This document shows positions 1 through 16,495 of a stretch of 16,614 nt of DNA, one piece after another. The notes beneath the pieces were generated by a model that searched no databases, was not told the origin of the DNA, and saw only the letters and a list, made by a program, of their open reading frames with translations. The stretch covers positions 1 through 16,614 of the forward strand of contig CAZHPN010000142.1 in the NCBI GenBank assembly GCA_964534375.1, written 5' to 3'. The stretch is from an uncultured bacterium (GTDB taxonomy: Bacteria > Lernaellota > Lernaellaia > Lernaellales > Lernaellaceae). Position numbers and translations under genes: made by a program. Each line of letters opens with the position of its first letter. Positions within the stretch are counted from its first letter, which is position 1.

Positions 1-158
1 CGGCCATGTCGTATGCATTGACTTGTCGTGCGAAGGATCGGCCCATGAAAAAGACTTGGCTGTTGCTTCTGGTCCTTGCCTTGAGCGCCGTGCTGTTGGC
101 CGCCTGCGCGTCCGGCGGATCTTCGTCGAGCAAAACGATCGTCGTCGATGATGATGAC
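1..158 (+). repeat. Direct repeat copy 1 (upstream region, RBS, signal peptide, linker start); partner at 1450-1607
   Basis: Manual alignment at offset 1449 shows 6 mismatches in 158 nt. The repeat may extend beyond the window start. Confidence 0.95.
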
Positions 159-1367
159 AACGACGACAACGACAACGATGACAACGACAATGATGACAAC
201 GACGATTCGAGTCCGTCGGTCGACGACGATAACGATGATAATGACGACGATGATGGCAGCGACGATGACGATGATGACGACAACGACGACGACAATGACG
301 ACAACGACGACGACGATGACGATGGCGACGACGACGACGATAGCTCGCCGGCCGACGATGACGACAACAGTTTCTGGGGCCTCAATGCCGTGTGGGGAAG
401 CTCGGCGACGGACGTGTTCGCCGTCGGATGCCAGGGCGATGGCTATTGCGACCAGGGCTTGATCTTGCATTACGACGGAACGTCCTGGGCGGCGATGACG
501 GAGCCGAGCGGAACGAATTGGCTTGACGGCGTCTGGGGCGACTCGCCCACCGACGTGTTCGCGACGGGCGCCGAGGAGATCTTGCATTACGATGGAACGA
601 CCTGGGCGACAATGGCGACCTTTCCGGGGTCTTGGTGGTATTTTGAGGGCGTATGGGGAACTTCGCCGTCGGACGTGTTCACGGTGGGATTTAGTGCGCG
701 AGGCCCCACAGCCACCTGTATAATTTCCCATTACAACGAAACGTCCTGGGCGACGATGACGGTCCCGAACGACTGTAGCGAACTTATCGGCGTCTGGGGC
801 GCTTCCCCATCCGACGTTTTTGCTGCGGGCGGGAGGGAAATATTGCACTACGACGGAACTTCCTGGACGACGATGATGACCGCCCCAGAATGGGTGCGGG
901 GCGTTTGGGGCGCGTCGCCTTCCGACGTGTTCGTGTCAGCCTATGCGAACGTTTTGCAATACGACGGAACGTCCTGGACGGCGATGACGATGCCGAGCGA
1001 ACTAGCCGGGTTTGACGGCGTCTGGGGAACTGCGCTTTCCGAGGTGTTCGCGGTCGGAAACTATTTGTTGGACGACGACACGACCGAAAACCCAACGATT
1101 GTACATTACGACGGAACATCCTGGACGACAATGCCAATCCCGAGCGGAAACTACCACCTTTTCAGCGGGTGGGAAGCCTCGCGTTCCGACGGGTTCGCGG
1201 TCGGGAGCGATGTTGCGGACGACGATACTACAATCGAGGGGCCCGTGGTTTTGCATTACGATGGAACGTCCTGGGCCGAAATGCCGACCGGAACCAACCA
1301 GGCCCTCAACGGCGTCTGGGGAACGTCACCGTCGGACGCGCGGTCGGCGACCGCCGCGGCGCGTTGA
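45..1367 (+). CDS. Lipoprotein with Asp/Asn-rich linker and WGxSxxDVFAVG repeat (beta-propeller-like) domain; last repeat frameshifted
   Basis: AAGGA at 33-37 before ATG45; MKKTWLLLLVLALSAVLLAAC signal peptide II with lipobox; ~75 aa D/N tract; 7 complete VWGxSxxDVFAVG...ILHYDGTSW repeats plus a broken 8th. The propeller fold is inferred from the repeat pattern. Confidence 0.85.
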   Translation: MKKTWLLLLVLALSAVLLAACASGGSSSSKTIVVDDDDNDDNDNDDNDNDDNDDSSPSVDDDNDDNDDDDGSDDDDDDDNDDDNDDNDDDDDDGDDDDDSSPADDDDNSFWGLNAVWGSSATDVFAVGCQGDGYCDQGLILHYDGTSWAAMTEPSGTNWLDGVWGDSPTDVFATGAEEILHYDGTTWATMATFPGSWWYFEGVWGTSPSDVFTVGFSARGPTATCIISHYNETSWATMTVPNDCSELIGVWGASPSDVFAAGGREILHYDGTSWTTMMTAPEWVRGVWGASPSDVFVSAYANVLQYDGTSWTAMTMPSELAGFDGVWGTALSEVFAVGNYLLDDDTTENPTIVHYDGTSWTTMPIPSGNYHLFSGWEASRSDGFAVGSDVADDDTTIEGPVVLHYDGTSWAEMPTGTNQALNGVWGTSPSDARSATAAAR

Positions 1368-1449
1368 TTCGGCGCCACGGGAGCCATTCGTGGCGGATGT
1401 CTGGGGCCGCGTTATTCGATCCGGCTCTGTCGTTTGGTTGACGGTGCGG

Positions 1450-1607
1450 CGGCCATGTCGTATGCATTGACTTGTCGTGCGAAGGATCGGCCCATGAAAA
1501 AGACATGGCTGTTGCTTATGGTCCTTGCCTTGAGCGCCGTGCTGTTGGCCGCGTGCGCGTCGCGCGGATCTTTGTCGAGCAAAACGATCGTCGTCGATGA
1601 TGATGAC
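1450..1607 (+). repeat. Direct repeat copy 2 of 1-158
   Basis: cggccatgtcgtatgcattgac...gtcgtcgatgatgatgac is nearly identical to 1-158. Confidence 0.95.
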
Positions 1608-1733
1608 GACGCCTCGCCGGCCGACGACGCTTTCCCGTGCGGGCCGCAAGATTGCACCGGTTGCTGCGACGCGTCCAAAACGTGTCAGTCGGGTTACGAC
1701 CAACAGGAATGCGGCTACTTCGGCGAGCCTTGC
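1494..1733 (+). pseudogene. Truncated lipoprotein: duplicated signal peptide, short Asp linker and partial Cys-rich repeat (the frame runs on to 1856 through unrelated sequence)
   Basis: MKKTWLLLMV...LAAC, DDDDDASPADD, then CGPQDCTGCCDASKTCQSGYDQQECGYFGEPC. This matches the first 7 of the 10 Cys in the repeat unit of the 7729-8967 protein, and similarity stops abruptly after 1733. Confidence 0.7.
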
Positions 1734-1817
1734 CTTAGGAGCCCGTCGGTCAAACGTCTGTCCACCTGGCGTCCACCAGAAATGGGAGTCCGACCGGTTG
1801 GGGGCCATGATTTCAGC

Positions 1818-1853
1818 TTGCACAAAACTAAACTGTGGGTTAACATTCGTGCA
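1818..1853 (+). promoter_or_regulatory. Sigma70-type promoter of the abiE operon with overlapping imperfect inverted repeat (putative antitoxin operator); probably leaderless
   Basis: TTGCAC(1818-1823)-17 nt-TAACAT(1841-1846), ATG 6 nt later, no SD. Inverted repeat 1819-1833/1839-1853 matches 11/15. Confidence 0.7.
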
Positions 1854-2536
1854 TGAAGTCGCAGGTCACCAGGAAAGAGCGACGCCCGGATTGGGAGAAG
1901 CTCTATGAAACCGCTGCCGCCCAGGAGGGTCTCTTCACGACGGTCCAAGCGGCCGAGGCGGGTTACTCGCCGCAACTGATCGCCAAACACCTCGGGAACG
2001 GCCGCTTCGCCCGTGTGCGTCGCTCGGTTTACCGTCTGGTTCACTTTCCGCCGGGGGAGCACGAGGATCTCGTCGCCGTCTGGCTGTGGTCCGAACGAGC
2101 CTGTGTTTTCTCGCACGAGACGGCGCTCGCCCTTCACGGCCTGTCGGATGCCCTCCCGTCTCGTGTACACCTGACGCTCCCCGCCGCGTGGCTTCCCCGC
2201 CGCCTTCGCGTGCCCGAGGGCGTGATCGTCCACCACGCCGACGTCGGCAAGAAAGAGATGTCCTGGGTCGGCCCCGTTCCGGTCACGAGCATCGCTCGCA
2301 CGATAATCGACTGCGCCGACGCGCAAGTGGCCCCGGACGTCGTCAGGGATGCGTTCGAGCAGGCCGCCGACCAGGGACTTGTCCGGCGGGATTCCGTGCC
2401 ACAGGTCGTCTCCTACCTGAAGGGGTTCTTCTCCGTTTCCCATAGCCGGTCGGGTCCGCGGTTCGGCTCGGCGTCGGGCAGCCGATCCGGTTCAAGGACG
2501 AGATCGTCATCCGGGGCTGCGGCGAGGACCCGATGA
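1853..2536 (+). CDS. abiEi: Type IV toxin-antitoxin AbiEi family antitoxin / transcriptional regulator
   Basis: AAAQEGLFTTVQA...RVRRSVYRL wHTH-like N-terminus, FSHETALALHGL and VTSIARTIIDC motifs typical of AbiEi; ATGA overlap with the downstream toxin. Confidence 0.9.
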   Translation: MKSQVTRKERRPDWEKLYETAAAQEGLFTTVQAAEAGYSPQLIAKHLGNGRFARVRRSVYRLVHFPPGEHEDLVAVWLWSERACVFSHETALALHGLSDALPSRVHLTLPAAWLPRRLRVPEGVIVHHADVGKKEMSWVGPVPVTSIARTIIDCADAQVAPDVVRDAFEQAADQGLVRRDSVPQVVSYLKGFFSVSHSRSGPRFGSASGSRSGSRTRSSSGAAARTR

Positions 2537-3435
2537 CGGCGCGCACGTACGGAACCCCGGAATCCTTCAAGATGGCGCTTGAGCAACGGCTTCGCGCGTC
2601 CTCAACGACTGGCCTAGACTTTACTCGCCGACGCCAGCTTCTCGTGTTCGACCGGTTCCTCGCCCGCGTGACGGCGGTGATGGGCAATGCGGCAATACTG
2701 AAGGGCGGACTGGTCATCGAGTTCCGAATCGAGCGCGCTCGGACGACGAAGGACATCGACCTGCGCTTGGACGGATCGCCCGGCGACGTGCTCGACCGTC
2801 TGCGCGAGGCGGGGCGGCTCGACCTCGGCGATTTCATGAGGTACGAAGCGAACCTGGACCGCGACCATCCCGACATCCGCAACGAAGGAATGCGATACAA
2901 TGGCCTCCGCCACCGCGTCGAGGCGAAGCTGGCGGGGAAGGTCTTCGGCCAACCGTTCGGGGTCGATGTCGCCTTCGGCGATCCGATCCTCGGGGAGCCC
3001 GACATTGTCGTCGCCGGTGACACACTCGGCTTCGCAGGGATCGAACCCCCGACGCTGCGGCTCTATCCGATCGAATCCCAGATTGCCGAGAAGCTGCACG
3101 CCTACACGATGCCGAGGGAGCGGCAGAACTCCCGCGTCAAGGATCTGCCTGACCTCGCTCTGCTTGCGACCGTGCGCGAGATTGACGGCGCCAAGTTGCG
3201 TCTCGCGCTGGAGCGGACCTTCGACTACCGGGATACGCACGCGCTGCCCGCGTCGATCCCCGAACCGCCGGCGTCCTGGGCCGCCGTATACGAGCGTATG
3301 GTTGGCGAGGATGATCTTCGCTGGCGGACGCTCCCCGATCTCCTCGCGGCCGTGCGAGCCTTTCTCGACCCGGTCCTTGCAAACGCACCCGCCGGCCAGT
3401 GGACACCACCGCTGTGGGGATGGCACTCGGCGTAA
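2533..3435 (+). CDS. abiEii: Nucleotidyltransferase AbiEii/AbiGii family toxin
   Basis: ILKGG, ARTTKDIDL, IAEKLHA and SRVKDLPDL motifs of AbiEii-type nucleotidyltransferases; translationally coupled to the antitoxin. Confidence 0.92.
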   Translation: MTARTYGTPESFKMALEQRLRASSTTGLDFTRRRQLLVFDRFLARVTAVMGNAAILKGGLVIEFRIERARTTKDIDLRLDGSPGDVLDRLREAGRLDLGDFMRYEANLDRDHPDIRNEGMRYNGLRHRVEAKLAGKVFGQPFGVDVAFGDPILGEPDIVVAGDTLGFAGIEPPTLRLYPIESQIAEKLHAYTMPRERQNSRVKDLPDLALLATVREIDGAKLRLALERTFDYRDTHALPASIPEPPASWAAVYERMVGEDDLRWRTLPDLLAAVRAFLDPVLANAPAGQWTPPLWGWHSA

Positions 3436-3487
3436 CCCAGATACTTAGCAGACGGCCTGCATTCGTCTGTGCACCGGCAACACGCCG

Positions 3488-3871
3488 TTGGCCGACATTG
3501 GCGTGGATCAGATCGACGACTTGGTTGGGCAACTGCTGGTGGAAAACCATCCGCACGCCATCACGAAGAACGGGCGCGAGCCGAACCGGCTGGCGCCCCA
3601 TTCCATCAACAACGTCCTCGGCGTCCTCGGGCGCATCTTGACGGCGGCGCACCGGCGTGGGGCGATCCCCAGCAGGCCGCTCATCGAGAAGTTGCCGATC
3701 GACTATCCCGACGAGGTGGTAGACATCCTGGCGCGCGAGGAGGTCACCCGGCTGTTCGCTGCATGCGATGGCGTCCACGGCCGGATGCTCAAGACCGGCG
3801 TCCTGACCGGATGTCGTGTCGGGGAAGGTGCAAGACACGTAGGGCAGCACCGAACCGGCACAGGGGTTTGA
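3488..3871 (+). pseudogene. Tyrosine recombinase/integrase fragment
   Basis: PLADI...LAPHSINNVLGVLGRILTAAHRRGAI (core-binding-like), ILAREEVTRLFAAC, LTGCRVGE (box I Arg), then drift and a stop. No HxxR or catalytic Tyr; in-frame stop just upstream. Confidence 0.8.
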
Positions 3872-3900
3872 AGACCCAAAGCGTCGTTTTGCCGAGACAA

Positions 3901-3938
3901 AAAAGGGCGGTTGCCACAAACCTGCGGACCGCCCTTTT
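3901..3938. terminator. Bidirectional intrinsic terminator-like hairpin between convergent units
   Basis: AAAAGGGCGGT(3901-3911)...ACCGCCCTTTT(3928-3938), with T-tracts on both strands. Confidence 0.75.
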
Positions 3939-4022
3939 CGCGGGTCGACTCACTCAATCAACAATCGCGCCAAACGCGCAAACGCAACGCCGCCCGATGA
4001 CGCGAGCGCGGGGAACGGCGCG

Positions 4023-5405
4023 TCAGGGGCCGTAGTGCAAAATCAAAGCGCTTTCCGAGATATTGTCCACCCCTACGGCGAACACGTCCGTGGCCGAGCT
4101 TCCCCAAACCTCGTTCAAAGTCAAATTGTCCGTCGTGGGGATCGCCATCGCCGACCACGAGGAACCGTCGTACTGCCAAATCGCCCCCTGCAATTCAGTG
4201 TAGTCCTGTCCCACGGCGAACACGTCCGTGGCCGAGCTTCCCCAAACGCCGTTCAAATACACCTGATCCGTCGTGGGGATCGTCATCGCCTCCCACGAGG
4301 AACCAGCGTAACCGGCGTAATGCCAAATCACGGGAGCGCTGAAGGTATCGTCGTATCCGACGGCGAACACGTCCGTGACCGAGCTTCCCCAAACGCCGTA
4401 CAAATACCCTTCGTCCGCCGTGGGGTTCGCCATCGCCGCCCACGAGAAACCGTTGTACCGCCAGATCGCCGGGAGCGATGAAGTTTCGTCCTCTCCCACG
4501 GCGAACACGTCCGAGGCCGAACTTCCCCAGACGCCGGACAAATACACATTGTCCGTCGTGGGGATCGTCATCGCCGCCCACGAGGAACCGGCGTACCGCC
4601 AAGTCACCGGGAGGGACGCAGTAACGTCATATCCGACGGCAAACACGTCCGAGGCCGAGCTTCCCCAAACGGTGCGCAACTGCACCCTGTTCGTCGTGGG
4701 GTTCGTCATCGCCGCCCACGAGGAACCGGCGTACCGCCAAATCACCGCTTGGGCTGAAGTATCGTCGTAGCCGACGGCGAACACGTCCGAGGTCGAGCTT
4801 CCCCACACGCCGTACAACTCCCCCTCGTCCGTCGTGGGGTTCGTCATCGCCGCCCACGAGGAACCGTCGTACTGCCAAATCCCCGGGAGCACCGAACCGT
4901 CAGTTCCGACGGCGAACACGTCCGAAGCCGAGCTTCCCCAAACGCCGTTCAACAACGAATCGCCCGTCCCAGAGATCGGCATCACCGACCAGTAGTCGTC
5001 GTCGTCATCGTTGTCGTCGTTATCATCGTCGTTGTCGTCGTTATCATCGTCGTTGTCGTCGTTATCATCGTCGTTGTCGTCGTTGTCGTCGTTGTCGTTG
5101 TCGTCGTTGTCGTCATCGTCATCCGGCGCTGAATCGTCGTTGTCATCATCGTCCGGCGTCGGCGATGTGTCGTCATTGTCGTCGTCGTCGTCGTCATCGT
5201 CGGGAGTGGAATCGTCGTTGTCGTCGTCGTCCGGGGTCGGCGACGTGTCGTCGTTGTCGTCGTTGTCGTCGTTGTCGTCGTTGTCGTCGTCGGCTGAATG
5301 GCCGCCGCCCCCGCTCGACTTCGAACCGCCGCAAGACGCCGATGCCGCCACCACCAGACCCAGCAAAAGCGCCACAACCAACAACCGGAGAATCCAAGCC
5401 TTCAT
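4023..5405 (-). CDS. Lipoprotein with Asp/Asn-rich linker and 7-repeat beta-propeller-like domain (paralog of 45-1367)
   Basis: AAGGAG before ATG5405; MKAWILRLLVVALLLGLVVAASASC signal; ~100 aa acidic tract; 7 VWGSSxxDVFAVG repeats. Confidence 0.88.
   Translation of the reverse strand: MKAWILRLLVVALLLGLVVAASASCGGSKSSGGGGHSADDDNDDNDDNDDNDDTSPTPDDDDNDDSTPDDDDDDDDNDDTSPTPDDDDNDDSAPDDDDDNDDNDNDDNDDNDDDNDDNDDDNDDNDDDNDDNDDDDDYWSVMPISGTGDSLLNGVWGSSASDVFAVGTDGSVLPGIWQYDGSSWAAMTNPTTDEGELYGVWGSSTSDVFAVGYDDTSAQAVIWRYAGSSWAAMTNPTTNRVQLRTVWGSSASDVFAVGYDVTASLPVTWRYAGSSWAAMTIPTTDNVYLSGVWGSSASDVFAVGEDETSSLPAIWRYNGFSWAAMANPTADEGYLYGVWGSSVTDVFAVGYDDTFSAPVIWHYAGYAGSSWEAMTIPTTDQVYLNGVWGSSATDVFAVGQDYTELQGAIWQYDGSSWSAMAIPTTDNLTLNEVWGSSATDVFAVGVDNISESALILHYGP
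4035..4990 (-). repeat. Seven intragenic tandem repeats of ~138 bp (46 aa)
   Basis: CACGTCCG anchor at 4083, 4221, 4368, 4506, 4644, 4782, 4917 (spacings 138, 147, 138, 138, 138, 135). Confidence 0.92.
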
Positions 5406-5569: not shown

Positions 5570-7498
5570 TTAGGGCAGCGTGCGGGCCACGCGGAACCCT
5601 TGGTACGAGCTGCGGTTTCCCGGATCGATGAAGTGGCGATACGCCGAGCGGCACTCGTAGGCGTAACTGCCCCAGTTGCCGCCGCGGTACACGCGGCCGG
5701 AACCCGTCGTCGGGCCGGTCGGGTCGGTGACCGTTCCCGGATACGCGCCGTACCAATCCCAGACCCATTCCTGGACGTTCCCGGCCACGTCGTATAAGCC
5801 CCACGCGTTCGCGGTTTTCTGGCCGACCGCCTCGGTCGTCGTGCGATCGTTGCCGCAGTACCAGCCGATCGTGTTCAGGTTCGCATCGACCGGCGTGCAG
5901 ACCGCTCCGGAAACGGCGATCGTCCCGTCGTAAAACGCGGTCGTCGTCCCCGCCCGGGCCGCGTATTCCCATTCCGATTCCGTCAACAGCCGGAAGCCCG
6001 TGCAGTCATAAACCGAAGCGACCACGTTGAGGGCGATGTTCGCCGAAGAAATGCCGCCGTGGGTGAGGCTTTCGCAGTTCATGTAGTCCGAGCCGACGGC
6101 CGTAGCGTCATTGCAGATCACGTCGGTCCAGGTGTAGCACGGCGTCTGTCCGGCGTTGAGCGAAATCTGGTCGGCGTACGCCGCCGCGTCGTACCAACTC
6201 ACCGAGTCTTCCGGGCAATTGCCGCCGCAACTCGCGAACGCGCTGGGGTTCCAGCTCATCGCGGCCGTGAACTGCTGCTGCGTGACTTGATAGACGCCGG
6301 TTTCGAAATCGTGGCTCAGCGTCACGGTGTGCTGCGTCTCATCCGCGTCGCGGCCGGGCTCGGACGCCGGGCTGCCCATCGTGAAACTGCCATGCGAAAC
6401 GCGAACGAAGCCGGAATCAACCGTGTCGTCGTTGTCGTCGTTGTCGTCGTTGTCGTCGTCGTCCGCGCCGCCGCGCGCGCAACGGAAACCGACCTCGGGG
6501 AAGGCCGAATCCGGCGTGATCCAGCCGCGGGCGGAGGTGCGCAGGGTGGTCGCCACGTCGCTGTAGCTGCCGCCGCGCACAACGCGGTACGTCCCGCTGG
6601 CCGGGCCTTGCGGATTGTCTTGCGGCGACGACGCGTAATAGGTCGCGTCGTACCAGTCGTTCACCCACTGGTCGACGTCGCCGAGCGGGTCGCACAGGCC
6701 CCAGGCGTTGGCCGTTTTTCCGCAAACCGGCTGGGTGGCGCCGCCGGAGTTGGCGGAATACCAGGCGAGCGCGCCGAGGCACGATTCCTCTTCGCAACCG
6801 TCATAGTAAATGTCGTTGGTTCCGGCGCGCGCGGCGAACTCCCACTCGGCCTCGGTCGGCAACCGCGCGCCGATCGCCTGGCAGTACGCCGCCGCCTCCG
6901 TCCAGCTCACCGTCTCGACCGGGCAATTGGCGCCGCAGCTCGCGAAGCTGCTCGGATTGGTTCCCGCGACGTTCTGGTATTCGGCCTGGGTGATGTCCGT
7001 TTTCGTGATCTCGAACGACGCGATCGTGACCGCATGCCGCGGGTTTTCGTCGTCGCGGCAGTTCGTGTCGCCCGGGATGCAGCCCATGTAGGCCGACCCG
7101 CCGGGAACCGGCAGCCAGACGATCCCGCTCGTGTCGTTGTCGTCGTCGTTGTCATTGTCGTCGTCGTTGTCGTTATCGTTATCGTTATCGTCATTGTCGT
7201 TGTCGTCATTGTCGTCGTTGTCGTCGTCGTCGTCATCGACCGGCGAAGCGTCGTCATCGACGGGCGAGGCGTCGTCATCGACGGGCGAGGCGTCGTCGTC
7301 GTCATCGGGGGAGGAATCGTCGTCGTCGTCCGGCGTCGCGTCGTCATCGATCGGCGAAGCGTCGTCGTCGCTTGGCGACGCGTCGTCGTCGAGCGGATGT
7401 TTGCTGCCGCCGCTGCTGCTGGAACTGCTGCACGCCGTCGCGGACAACAGCAACACCATCGTCAACAGAAACAACAAAACCCAACTGCCTCGTTTCAT
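5570..7498 (-). CDS. Lipoprotein with acidic linker and two formylglycine-generating enzyme (FGE-sulfatase/SUMF1, C-type lectin fold) domains
   Basis: GGAGG before ATG7498; ...LLSATAC lipobox-like; two domains each with RL(P/L)TExEWE(F/Y)AARAG, NAWGLxD, RGGx(Y/W) and GFR motifs, separated by DDDDNDDNDDNDD. Confidence 0.92.
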   Translation of the reverse strand: MKRGSWVLLFLLTMVLLLSATACSSSSSSGGSKHPLDDDASPSDDDASPIDDDATPDDDDDSSPDDDDDASPVDDDASPVDDDASPVDDDDDDNDDNDDNDNDDNDNDNDNDDDNDNDDDNDTSGIVWLPVPGGSAYMGCIPGDTNCRDDENPRHAVTIASFEITKTDITQAEYQNVAGTNPSSFASCGANCPVETVSWTEAAAYCQAIGARLPTEAEWEFAARAGTNDIYYDGCEEESCLGALAWYSANSGGATQPVCGKTANAWGLCDPLGDVDQWVNDWYDATYYASSPQDNPQGPASGTYRVVRGGSYSDVATTLRTSARGWITPDSAFPEVGFRCARGGADDDDNDDNDDNDDTVDSGFVRVSHGSFTMGSPASEPGRDADETQHTVTLSHDFETGVYQVTQQQFTAAMSWNPSAFASCGGNCPEDSVSWYDAAAYADQISLNAGQTPCYTWTDVICNDATAVGSDYMNCESLTHGGISSANIALNVVASVYDCTGFRLLTESEWEYAARAGTTTAFYDGTIAVSGAVCTPVDANLNTIGWYCGNDRTTTEAVGQKTANAWGLYDVAGNVQEWVWDWYGAYPGTVTDPTGPTTGSGRVYRGGNWGSYAYECRSAYRHFIDPGNRSSYQGFRVARTLP

Positions 7499-7673
7499 CG
7501 CGACACCTCCCAGGGAAGCCTGTCCCAAACTCGGTTAAACGCTCTGGAAAAACGGCCTTCCGGTCGAGTTCATAGCTACGCCCATCGTTTCCCGCCGTCA
7601 AGGCTGCGGCGCCGCTGTCGCATCGCCGTGGCGGCCTGGCTTGCGGTCTCGACCCGCACGAGGGCCGGAGATT

Positions 7674-7728: not shown

Positions 7729-8967
7729 TCAGCAGCCGCAGCCGGTGGAACTCTTGGCCGCGCCGGGGGTCGGCGGCGCCGGCGACGTGTCGTCATCGAC
7801 GGGCGACAAGTCGTCGTCGGTGGGCGAGGCGTCGTCGTCGGGCGACGTGTCGTCGTCGGGCGAGGAATCGTCGTCGGGCGAGGCGTCGTCGTCCGGCGAG
7901 CTATCGTCGTCGGGCGAGGAATCGTCGTCCGGCGGCGTCGTGTCGTCGTCGGGCGAAACGTCGTCGTTGTCGTTGTCATTATCGTCGTTGTCGTCATTGT
8001 CGTCGTCGTCCGGCGTCGGCGTGCACGCGCCGTTCACGCAATCGGACCCCGCGGCGCACGCCTGGCACTGGGCGCCGGCCGCGCCGCAAGCCCCATCGGT
8101 ATTGCCCGGGAGGCATTGCGCGGCGGAGCAGCAGCCGCTCGTGCACGTGGTCGGATCGCACACGCATTGCCCGCCGTCGGTCGCGCTCTCGCAGGCCGTG
8201 CCCTGGCCGCAACTCGAACACTGCGCGCCCGCCGAGCCGCACTGATCGGCGGTTTGGCCGGCGAAGGTAATGCAGGTCGTGCCGCTGCAGCAGCCCTGCG
8301 GGCACGAGGTGGGCGTGCACGGGTACTGGCACGCGCTGTCGATGCACGTCTGACCGTTCGCGCACGCCTGGCAGGTATCGCCGCCCGAACCGCATTCGGC
8401 GTCGGTCGTCCCCGGGTAGCAGGTCTGCTGCTCCGCGTCGCAACAGCCGTAGGGGCACGACGTGCTGTTGCACGCCCCCGACGTGCAGGCGCCGTCGACG
8501 CAGTTCTTGCCCTCGCCGGCGCAGTTGACGCAGGCGGCGCCGCCGCTGCCGCAATAATCGGCTGCGGTTCCGGGCTGGCAGCCGCCGTCCGGCCCGCAGC
8601 AGCCGGTTGTGCACGTGCCCGGGAAGCAGCCGCCGCCCGCCGCGCACTGATGCGCGAAGGAGCAGTATTCGCCCTCGGTCGCGCAGTCCGTGCAGGCTTG
8701 CGCCAGGAAGCCGCAGGCGTCGTCGGCGGTCCCCAGTTGGCAGGCGCCGTTGGCGTCGCAGCAGCCGTAATAACAATTGGTGATGTCGCAGGCTTTGTCG
8801 CGCGCGCCGAGCGGGCGATCGGCCGGCGCAACGGACGCAAGCGCGCTCCACGGGATCGCCGGCGCCGCGATCGGACGAACGTCTTCGGCGAAAGCCGCGG
8901 TTCCGAGGCAGGCCAACAGGACCAGTGCGAAGAACAAGCGAAGGACCGGCGTGAGACAACTCTTCAT
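7729..8967 (-). CDS. Secreted cysteine-rich repeat protein (5 repeats of 10 Cys) with C-terminal acidic linker and terminal GCGC
   Basis: GGAGG before ATG8967; signal peptide ending AAFA; five CxxxxCxxGCC...C..G.....CG....CxxC...C...C units; DDD(S/A)SP repeats; ends SSTGCGC-stop. Confidence 0.88.
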   Translation of the reverse strand: MKSCLTPVLRLFFALVLLACLGTAAFAEDVRPIAAPAIPWSALASVAPADRPLGARDKACDITNCYYGCCDANGACQLGTADDACGFLAQACTDCATEGEYCSFAHQCAAGGGCFPGTCTTGCCGPDGGCQPGTAADYCGSGGAACVNCAGEGKNCVDGACTSGACNSTSCPYGCCDAEQQTCYPGTTDAECGSGGDTCQACANGQTCIDSACQYPCTPTSCPQGCCSGTTCITFAGQTADQCGSAGAQCSSCGQGTACESATDGGQCVCDPTTCTSGCCSAAQCLPGNTDGACGAAGAQCQACAAGSDCVNGACTPTPDDDDNDDNDDNDNDNDDVSPDDDTTPPDDDSSPDDDSSPDDDASPDDDSSPDDDTSPDDDASPTDDDLSPVDDDTSPAPPTPGAAKSSTGCGC

Positions 8968-9133
8968 CTGGGCAACCTCCCGAAACATGGTTGGGGCCTG
9001 CATTCGCCACCGAGCGCGCCTTCAGCGAAAAAACATTTGCGCGGCGGAAGATCGTCCCACGCAACAAAACAATGCACGGCGCCGCTCTTTGGATCTTGGT
9101 TTTCACCGGGGGCCGACAACGCCCGCCGCAGTG

Positions 9134-15244: not shown

Positions 15245-16495
15245 ATGCGCAAGCCGTTGAGCGTTTGTGGCCTATGGTTCCTTCTTCTTCTGTCGCTCGC
15301 GCTGTTCGCCGGGTGCGGATCGCAGTCGGCGTCTTCGAACGCCGGGAGCGCGCCGGCGGCTGGCGATGACGACGCCGCGGCCGCGGACGACGACCAGGCG
15401 ACCGGCGACGATGACGACGACGACGACAGCTCGCCGTTCTGGCCGCCGGACCAGCCGGGGCCGTACGGGGCGGGCGTCATCACGATCCAGACGCGCGACG
15501 ATAGCCGCTGGGAGTTGTGGGGCCTGCAATACCGCGGCCTGCCGCTGGAGATTTGGTATCCGACGACCGGCGACGACGGCACGCCCAACAACGTCAAGGC
15601 GATGGTCGGCGACTTGCCGGCGTGGATTATGGATATCGTCGGCCTGGTTTACGGCGACGACCTGAACACCCTGCTGACCACGCCGACGAAGGCGAAGCGC
15701 GATGCGACTCCGGCCGCCGGCGGCCCGTTCCCGGTGCTGTTGTTCAGCCACGGCATCTCCGCCATTCGCTTCCAGAACTACACGCTGTGCGAACACCTCG
15801 CCAGCCACGGCTTCGTCGTCGTGGCGCCCGACCACTACGACGGCGCGATCTTCGCCAACCTCGGCAACGACGACGTGGTCATCTTCAACGTGCTCACTTG
15901 GGTCACGGGTCTCGTCGACCGCCCGCTCGACGTCTCGTTCGTCTACCATTACCTGGAGGGGGCGGCCGGCAGCGGACCGCTCAGCCGCATTCCGATGGAT
16001 CTCGACCAATTCGGCGTCATCGGCCACAGCTACGGCGGCCTGACGGCGATGCAGGCGGGGCCGCAGTATCCGCAGTTCGTCAAGGCGATCGCGGCGCTCA
16101 ACCCGGTCTACACCGACAGCTATCCGCAGGACTATGCCGGGCCGTTCTTCATGCTGCAAAGCGCCGAGGACGAGATCGTCGGCGCGTTCAACGGCGGCAC
16201 GCGCGAGGCGTTCGAGAAGGCCGCCTCGCCCCGGAAATCCTATGTGCTGCTCAAGGAGGGCAGCCATTACAGCGTCACCGACGCCTGCGCCTTGCTGCCG
16301 CCGCTGCTGATCGTGCCGGCGCGCGGCTGCGGGGTGGCCGACCGCATCAATTCGACGCTGGCCAACGAGATTTCCGCGGCCTACGTGACCGCGTTTTTCA
16401 AGACGGGTGTGGTCGGCGACGAGCGGTATCGCGAATACCTGATGTCGAACCACTATCCGAAGGACATCAAATACGCCGTGGAGTGGCCGAAGTAA
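15245..16495 (+). CDS. Alpha/beta-hydrolase lipoprotein (PAF-acetylhydrolase/dienelactone hydrolase-like) with acidic linker
   Basis: MRKPL...LFAGC lipobox; DDD tract; LEIWYP, FPVLLFSHG, LASHGFVVVAPDH, nucleophile GHSYGG, candidate Asp (EDEIV) and His (GSHYS). Confidence 0.9.
   Translation: MRKPLSVCGLWFLLLLSLALFAGCGSQSASSNAGSAPAAGDDDAAAADDDQATGDDDDDDDSSPFWPPDQPGPYGAGVITIQTRDDSRWELWGLQYRGLPLEIWYPTTGDDGTPNNVKAMVGDLPAWIMDIVGLVYGDDLNTLLTTPTKAKRDATPAAGGPFPVLLFSHGISAIRFQNYTLCEHLASHGFVVVAPDHYDGAIFANLGNDDVVIFNVLTWVTGLVDRPLDVSFVYHYLEGAAGSGPLSRIPMDLDQFGVIGHSYGGLTAMQAGPQYPQFVKAIAALNPVYTDSYPQDYAGPFFMLQSAEDEIVGAFNGGTREAFEKAASPRKSYVLLKEGSHYSVTDACALLPPLLIVPARGCGVADRINSTLANEISAAYVTAFFKTGVVGDERYREYLMSNHYPKDIKYAVEWPK

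Follow-up and report, generated by a model that had tools for sequence, protein, structure and literature searches.

A near-identical export module before two unlike cargos: probable recent recombination between neighbouring lipoprotein genes, with one end in an aspartate-rich linker

Why do two adjacent genes begin with almost the same 158 nucleotides and then go on to encode unrelated proteins? The question is raised by the start of a 16,614-nt contig (C142), which is here analysed whole as the window and is one of 381 contigs in the genome (G000) of an uncultured wetland bacterium. The first gene (copy 1; 45-1367, + strand) encodes a 440-residue lipoprotein that has a signal peptide, an Asp/Asn linker and a predicted 7-bladed beta-propeller. 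The second (copy 2; 1494-1856, + strand) is an open reading frame (ORF) of 120 residues that starts with the same signal peptide and runs into a cysteine-rich fragment. The original prediction was a recent domain swap, with the linker DNA as the recombination joint. We argue from the sequence comparisons below that the two neighbours probably recombined recently, most likely by gene conversion of the 5' module, and that linkers are the boundaries of the blocks exchanged, which would make export and cargo modules separable.

The repeat itself is as it was first described. Aligning 1-420 with 1450-1760 shows that 1-158 and 1450-1607 differ at six positions (56, 69, 104, 113, 114 and 124), and identity is lost after base 158/1607, within GAT GAT GAT GAC. 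The 158-nt match has an E-value of 1e-69 in a DNA search of the own genome, and a repeat search gives 1-162 against 1450-1611 at 96%. It takes in 44 nt of upstream DNA, including the ribosome-binding site (RBS), and codons 1-38. These codons read MKKTWLLL(L/M)VLALSAVLLAAC with the lipobox, then ASGGSSSSKTIVV, then DDDD; in other words, a signal peptide with the lipobox LAAC is followed by SSSSKTIVV and the first Asp residues. Lipoprotein signal peptides have a positive N-terminus, a hydrophobic core and a lipobox of the form [LVI][ASTVI][GAS]C. Read by eye from the translations, both copies have these features of the SPase II type (MKK, TWLLLLVLALSAVL and LAAC). The cassettes form a direct repeat, and a promoter-like region precedes each of them.

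In copy 1 the upstream DNA with the RBS (1-44, + strand) is identical to 1450-1493 in the window, and a weak -10-like hexamer, TATGCA, can be read by eye at 12-17 within a promoter-like spacer. The signal peptide with its lipobox cysteine (Cys21) and the conserved mature N-terminus ASGGSSSSKTIVV occupy 45-146. The linker follows at 147-368 (74 residues, ending in SSPADDDDN), and then the propeller cargo with a short tail, ARSATAAAR, at 369-1367. Copy 2 is preceded by an intergenic region and 5' untranslated region (UTR) at 1368-1493, which is 92-93% identical to the loci on contigs C92 and C230 and holds TTGACG at 1438-1443, TATGCA at 1461-1466 and an AAGGA RBS. Its linker is DDDDDASPADD, only 11 residues (1596-1628), and its Cys-rich fragment is at 1629-1733; all of these lie on the + strand. 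The shared SPADD close of the two linkers had been taken as part of the pattern. The 14-mer TCGCCGGCCGACGA is indeed in both (346-359 and 1614-1627), but it occurs 54 times over 43 contigs. It is therefore a generic linker word and is no evidence for common ancestry of the two linkers.

Before any history is read from this pattern it is worth considering whether it is real. One can imagine a duplication, or a single cassette-cargo junction, made by the assembler at low-complexity DNA. The contig does start at the repeat: its first base lies exactly 55 nt 5' of the first mismatch between the copies (position 56), which is probably the trace of a break in a k = 55 de Bruijn graph. Of the 762 contig ends, 41 have an Asp/Asn tract no more than 60 nt away, and tracts make up 0.49% of the genome. 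Public k = 31 contigs leave 219-397 uncovered, and the genome, estimated to be ~94% complete, has an estimated contamination of 3.56%. Against all of this stand other assemblies. When metagenome contigs are searched for a 30-nt word of the copy 2 cargo, two records match, L032 and L033. L033 matches window 1-4660 with 2 mismatches in 4660 nt and 0 indels (T>C at position 29 and A>G at position 33) and extends 668 nt further upstream (from -668); the copy 1 linker is identical in it, and its copy 1 has a GGAGGA RBS. L032 equals window 1441-4596 at 100% identity. Since these records carry the same structure, both cassette-cargo junctions are confirmed outside the window's own assembly. From 1578 onwards the window is also covered, with 0 differences, by public k = 31 contigs or unitigs from three runs (457, 2237 and 93 nt). 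No two successive differences between the copies are as much as 55 nt apart, and the last of the six lies within 35 nt of the point of divergence. No exact repeat of at least 55 nt links 101-400 to other contigs when every third start position is sampled; the longest matches found that way measure 41 nt (cassette) and 37 nt (tract), and 37 nt is also the longest exact match of the copy 1 linker elsewhere in the genome. A misassembly is thus very improbable, and an independent contig spans the two junctions. The many apparent joints in the public k = 31 contigs are uninformative for this locus, as they link Asp tracts of other genes or organisms by sides of 20-35 nt.

The same counts carry a warning for annotators and assemblers. 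Three members of the cassette family are cut by contig ends at Asp/Asn tracts, and linker-bearing lipoprotein genes are under-assembled in this genome. Because 41 of 762 contig ends adjoin tracts, lipoprotein genes of this group are systematically truncated in metagenome-assembled genomes.

The two cargos differ in fold and in history. The copy 1 cargo has eight VWGxSxSDVFAVG..ILHYDG repeats. Its AlphaFold2 (AF2) model, built with 33 aligned sequences, has a mean predicted confidence (pLDDT) of 88.7, a predicted template modelling score (pTM) of 0.87 and 26 strands. The best Foldseek matches of this model are 7-bladed propellers (Ycf48 and WD40-type; E = 6.5e-9), with TM scores of 0.61-0.67 to 5ojr/2xbg and about 0.6-0.73 over 7-bladed propellers. 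The model thus fits the 7-bladed fold, in which seven four-stranded blades close a ring, and the propeller that had been proposed holds. It resembles the Ycf48 and WD40-type propellers in fold, but sequence identity to them is ~12%, and it belongs to no curated family and has a repeat signature of its own (VWGxSxSDVFAVG..ILHYDGxxW). The sole Pfam match, to DUF6087, is weak, and 4229 of 8000 scored candidates are relatives at E <= 0.001, all uncharacterised. The closest paralogue of this propeller is the second propeller (B) of a two-propeller gene on C92 (72% at the nucleotide level and a synonymous divergence, pS, of 0.39 over 322 codons). The copy 2 cargo had been called a Cys-rich repeat of the type found at 7729-8967. 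The type stands, as BLASTP matches it to a repeat unit of the protein encoded at 7729-9003 with E = 3e-4 and further units also match, but in copy 2 no more than about two thirds of a single unit is present.

The module is not confined to these two genes. A DNA search of the own genome with the 158-nt query returns 17 matches, and 16 genes begin with the module. The first cargo can be read in ten. Eight have a propeller, one of them followed by a second propeller and one by a linker and a Cys-rich module; the latter order (signal peptide, propeller, linker, Cys-rich module) is the architecture of the gene C4_10269. One has two Lcl_C domains (Pfam E = 8e-19), and one, copy 2, has the Cys-rich unit. 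In three more the contig ends inside the linker and the cargo is not readable, and the last three are remnants of 11-62 family codons. The cassette is therefore not tied to a single domain type, which would have spoken against exchange. One family cassette, at C92:19203-19585 (L015), is cut after 11 codons by a ~355-nt element that has further copies on C76, C113 and C66 at 88-97% and an ORF with no Pfam or PHROG match. The cassette DNA has only two matches of 24-32 nt in 40 other genomes (E = 2e-4 and 5.5e-4), and in 16 further genomes of the class the cassette peptide finds only two, both marginal (E = 5e-4 and 7.5e-4). The 16-member family thus appears confined to this genome among those searched.

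Within the family the two copies stand out. At 95% identity they are the closest of all pairs in a 13 x 13 matrix, ahead of 88% for the next. Synonymous divergence between them is low as well (pS 0.11; family mean 0.255), and such a depression marks gene conversion. The relationships of the parts are also discordant: the cassette of copy 1 is closest to copy 2, and its cargo is closest to propeller B of C92. Because the modules are the closest pair while the cargos are unrelated in history and fold, a recombination event that ended on one side at the Asp tract seems to be required. Other members show similar discordance. C301 has a cargo that pairs with the second propeller of a C66 gene (pS about 0.3-0.4), behind an unrelated signal peptide; C332 and C344 have a 5' region in common at 90%, with propeller cargo in the one and Lcl_C in the other.

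What kind of event was it? We argue that conversion of the 5' module is the simplest answer. Its 3' end would be at base 158, in the Asp codons. On the 5' side, where no clear edge is seen, identity between the copies in L033 is 108/114 in the signal-peptide coding part, 42/44 in the 5' UTR, 75/82 in the intergenic region and 89/106 in the propeller tail. One line of evidence is the C171 tandem pair, where a young 5' module (pS 0.09) stands before two old propeller homologues (pS 0.60; p = 1e-10). Another comes from positions 29 and 33, which are polymorphic: the window has T29/A33, the bases of copy 2, and L033 and contigs of runs X1-X3 have C29/G33. With the L033 alleles the copies differ at 8 of 158 positions. 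Both haplotypes of copy 1 carry its specific T56. This looks like a short conversion tract that varies in nature and possibly like conversion that is still going on. That the window haplotype of copy 1 bears copy 2 bases at just these sites favours conversion. So does the fact that there is no visible donor for the Cys-rich cargo.

The alternative closest to the original prediction is a true cargo swap. Cassette, linker and propeller would have been duplicated in tandem, after which the second copy lost its propeller and acquired a Cys-rich module through recombination or deletion between tracts. The copy 2 linker is by far the shortest in the family (11 residues against 27-110 in the others), and in it the Asp codons of the cassette pass directly into ASPADD, which usually precedes Cys-rich units. 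If a gene like C4_10269 lost the DNA between its two linkers, exactly the structure of copy 2 would result; together with the very short linker, the existence of that architecture keeps a deletion or replacement route alive. The differences between the two-propeller genes of C92 and C66 and the architectures of copy 1 and C301 map to linkers as well. What makes us regard a swap as unlikely, though the strongest of the rivals, is that the best Cys-rich paralogue of copy 2 is at most 49% identical in amino acids, so no donor can be identified. The C171 cargos are old homologues behind a young module, which is simplest as 5' conversion, and the polymorphic sites 29/33 point to exchange between the cassettes themselves. 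A recent event is thus probable, with different cargos and discordant histories, but the swap that was proposed leaves the same pattern as a 5' gene conversion, and C171 favours the latter.

One can also imagine that there was no recent recombination at all. Purifying selection on the DNA or RNA and on the peptide could have kept the 5' module nearly identical before cargos that were always different. Selection on the non-coding part is probably real. A subgroup of the family (the window, C92, C230 and C301) has a longer unit made of a propeller tail, an 82-nt intergenic region and the module. The intergenic region (window 1368-1449) is 92-93% identical at the C92 and C230 loci, beside coding DNA with a pS of 0.3-0.4. 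This conservation of a non-coding part above the adjacent coding DNA suggests a selected, regulatory element. The region holds a GCCACG..CGTGGC hairpin and the TTGACG box. An Rfam scan of 1-2000 has no match at E <= 1, a consensus promoter scan yields 0 promoters, terminator-like sites number 3 where 2.2 are expected, and the TTGACG-17-TATGCA pair is promoter-like by eye only. The peptide appears constrained too: the 38 residues of copy 1 equal those of C301 (38/38) despite 7 synonymous differences over codons 2-35. However, such peptide constraint leaves synonymous differences standing, and pS is 0.11 between our two copies against 0.25-0.35 for other members. Selection would also have to explain a pS of 0.00-0.03 within the modules of C171 and C234. 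Finally, constraint on copy 2 is relaxed, with three amino-acid changes and a weakened RBS. We consider selection without recombination improbable.

Recent recombination with its edge at a linker is easier to accept if other linkers in the genome behave in the same way. Runs of at least 6 Asp/Asn codons were taken as tracts; there are 765, which merge into 437 linkers. A pair of double FGE-sulfatase lipoproteins on C33 has a pS of 0.14 in domain 1 against 0.60 in the signal peptide and linker 1 and 0.58 from linker 2 onward (Fisher p = 4e-21). At this locus (C33:24734-30042, L030) a near-identical first FGE domain is flanked on both sides by Asp/Asn linkers and the rest is old; the gene at 5570-7528 in the window is a third paralogue of the pair. 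On C234 three genes have one 5' module and carry PA-IL, Lcl_C plus propeller, and propeller, respectively; the pS of the signal peptide is 0.03 between the genes with PA-IL and Lcl_C plus propeller cargo. Two genes on C44 likewise have one 5' module and different first cargo. The 200-nt flanks at 386 linker joints were also compared at an identity of at least 85%, with controls placed 400 and 600 nt into the cargo. At the joints 11 pairs are similar upstream only and 10 downstream only, so 0 of 21 are similar on both sides. Among the controls 4 of 14 (400 nt) and 4 of 18 (600 nt) are, or 8 of 32. At the level of sequence, then, blocks of recent common ancestry stop at linker tracts elsewhere in this genome.

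A number of points weigh against this reading. The difference between 0/21 and 8/32 has a Fisher p of 0.016, but the pairs come from few families and are not independent. When all duplicated segments are taken, a pair ends within 20 nt of a tract in only 12 of 759 cases. This is no enrichment, since about 25 of 759 would be expected by our estimate (0.84% of the genome is within reach). The local density of alignment ends at tracts is raised roughly 3-fold with our own width correction, and this is the only enrichment seen; alignments naturally stop at length-variable, low-complexity DNA. The copy 1 tract has the same length in the window and in L033 and is not visibly unstable. There is no clear 5' edge, as the upstream intergenic DNA of the two copies (75/82) is no closer than that of the C92 and C230 loci. 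Other adjacent family members are dissimilar (70% for the C66 pair, 76% for the C4 pair), so homogenisation of neighbours is not systematic. Conversion and cargo replacement leave identical patterns here because the cargos cannot be aligned. It must also be noted that all the data are short-read assemblies. Of the proposal that linker DNA is a recombination joint, what survives is that blocks end at linkers; a causal role of the tract DNA is only one of two readings, and a genome-wide excess of ends is not seen.

If our reading is right, recent recombination between neighbours would account for the near identity of the two 158-nt copies, most likely as a conversion of the 5' module whose 3' end fell at the start of the Asp tract. 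Exact words of 24-37 nt recur between linkers. RecA-dependent exchange needs a minimal length close to this, and such matches could suffice for ectopic pairing. A join made in frame anywhere within a linker would still yield a working protein, and this would act as a selection filter. Pairing and filter would work together, and the export module and the cargo modules would evolve as separable units. The data are compatible both with a tract that promotes recombination and with one that tolerates breakpoints.

One may go further and see Asp/Asn tracts as in-frame recombination joints throughout the genome, which re-assort export modules with lectin-like binding modules (propeller, Lcl_C, PA-IL and Cys-rich). 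We hold this broader idea to be doubtful at present. If it were true, hundreds of tracts would be alike enough in exact sequence for ectopic pairing, continual re-assortment would give a fast-evolving surface repertoire, and the variation at sites 29/33 would be one of these exchanges, captured in nature. Exported proteins are often modular, but the re-assortment of their modules is rarely visible. This genome offers many natural replicates, namely three 5'-module families with mixed cargo and conversion tracts that coincide with single domains.

Copy 2 itself is not intact. Its homology to the Cys-rich units ends at the TGC codon at 1731-1733, and after that the frame runs through unrelated sequence until the stop at 1856. 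When the family consensus is taken as reference, the amino-acid changes between the copies (L9M, G24R and S27L) are all on copy 2, and so is a G>A substitution in the Shine-Dalgarno sequence. Given the cut Cys-rich unit, these changes and the weakened RBS, copy 2 reads as a truncated, decaying remnant and not as a working new combination. It lies beside mobile-element debris. Neither copy 2, for which there is no Pfam family, nor the protein of 7729-9003 gives anything above cut-off in Pfam or NCBIfam, and a cytochrome c551 match (16 bits, cut-off 118) is noise. The latter gene (- strand) encodes a secreted protein of ~6 Cys-rich units with an Asp-rich C-terminal spacer and a GCGC end; the spacer is a long run of Asp, Ser and Pro that leads into ...STGCGC.

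Immediately downstream are an AbiEi antitoxin gene (1853-2536, + strand; Pfam AbiEi_4, E = 5.3e-10, 39.7 bits, cut-off 25) and an AbiEii nucleotidyltransferase toxin gene (2533-3435, + strand; Pfam AbiEii, E = 1.9e-30, 107 bits, cut-off 22.5). They overlap at 2533-2536 and form a type IV toxin-antitoxin pair, AbiE. The stop of copy 2 overlaps the AbiEi start (ATGA, 1853-1856), so the pair may be expressed by read-through from the lipoprotein promoter. Next comes an integrase fragment of 140 codons (3449-3868, + strand) that lacks a start codon and ends at a stop. It matches profile positions 196-305 of 611 in PHROG phrog_1 (E = 2.3e-10) and has no Pfam match. To judge from its sequence, the Cys-rich cargo was cut after 1733 by what is today the AbiE pair and a broken integrase. 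A repeat search finds no direct repeats flanking this block, and the block has no second copy in the own genome.

The other side of the locus has been disturbed as well. Upstream of copy 1, L033 has the end of an ISL3 transposase (the C-terminal 138 residues; L033:4914-5327, - strand, 250-668 nt upstream of window base 1; Pfam E = 1.3e-33), then a decayed propeller tail of ~100 nt and then the same intergenic region as before copy 2. The transposase end adjoins the decayed tail. An insertion sequence apparently destroyed the gene formerly upstream of copy 1. Elsewhere in the window three lipoproteins have Asp/Asn linkers behind unrelated signal peptides: a propeller protein (4023-5405, - strand), the double FGE-sulfatase (5570-7528, - strand) and a PAF-acetylhydrolase-like hydrolase (15350-16495, + strand). 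The Asp/Asn linker appears to be a general device of the organism's exported proteins.

Do known systems of variable surface proteins cover this locus? The vpma genes of Mycoplasma agalactiae, the vsp genes of M. bovis and the vsa genes of M. pulmonis are clustered lipoprotein families. In the part of the source drawn on here, they have a conserved 5' UTR and signal-peptide coding region before differing mature parts, and recombination occurs in the conserved 5' part (PMC2268961). The conserved 5' UTR and signal peptide across the window's gene family are alike. However, the mycoplasma systems have a single promoter and invert DNA with an intact tyrosine recombinase encoded next to the genes, while here there are direct repeats, each with a conserved upstream region, and the nearby integrase is only a 140-codon fragment. 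The cargo here consists of folded binding domains behind Asp/Asn linkers and not of repeat peptides. We therefore reject a shufflon or phase-variation reading: there is no adjacent intact recombinase (only the fragment at 3449-3868 and the ISL3 transposase upstream in L033) and there are no inverted sites.

Contact-dependent inhibition (CDI) and polymorphic toxins offer the other comparison. As far as the portions consulted of two papers go, the CdiA-CT is exchanged at the VENN motif, and homologous recombination at the conserved part has been proposed (PMC7662968; PMC3482391). A constant N-terminal export part, exchangeable C-terminal modules, a conserved junction, and remnants and mobile-element genes nearby are found in both. 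In this genome the exported modules are propeller, Lcl_C, PA-IL or Cys-rich domains; none is a toxin, and none is followed by an immunity gene. The junction here is a long Asp/Asn tract of variable length instead of a short fixed motif, and SPADD is common in it but not fixed. No start-less orphan cargo cassettes are seen here. A polymorphic-toxin reading is rejected, since there is no toxin-immunity cargo and AbiEi/AbiEii is a separate toxin-antitoxin pair that is not fused. The locus thus lacks what defines the mycoplasma and the CDI systems, namely an intact recombinase and inverted sites in the one and toxin-immunity cargo in the other.

The portion consulted of a paper on Lernaellota, the presumed phylum, makes no mention of lipoprotein, linker or propeller (PMC9324843). 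A search by title of the literature on domain shuffling and linkers found nothing on Asp/Asn linkers as recombination joints, and no work was found that combines a conserved signal peptide, a gene family and gene conversion. A further precedent may be the glycanases CenA and Cex of Cellulomonas fimi. Their catalytic and binding domains, set in different orders or combinations, are parted by Pro-Thr boxes, and the DNA of these repetitive linkers is said to have been proposed as the point of "region shuffling", although a literature search returned no paper on this. Their linker is Pro/Thr, whereas the linker here is Asp/Asn and comes with synonymous-site evidence for block boundaries. With its natural replicates, this genome opens to direct test a long-standing proposal, that domains are shuffled under the guidance of linker DNA.

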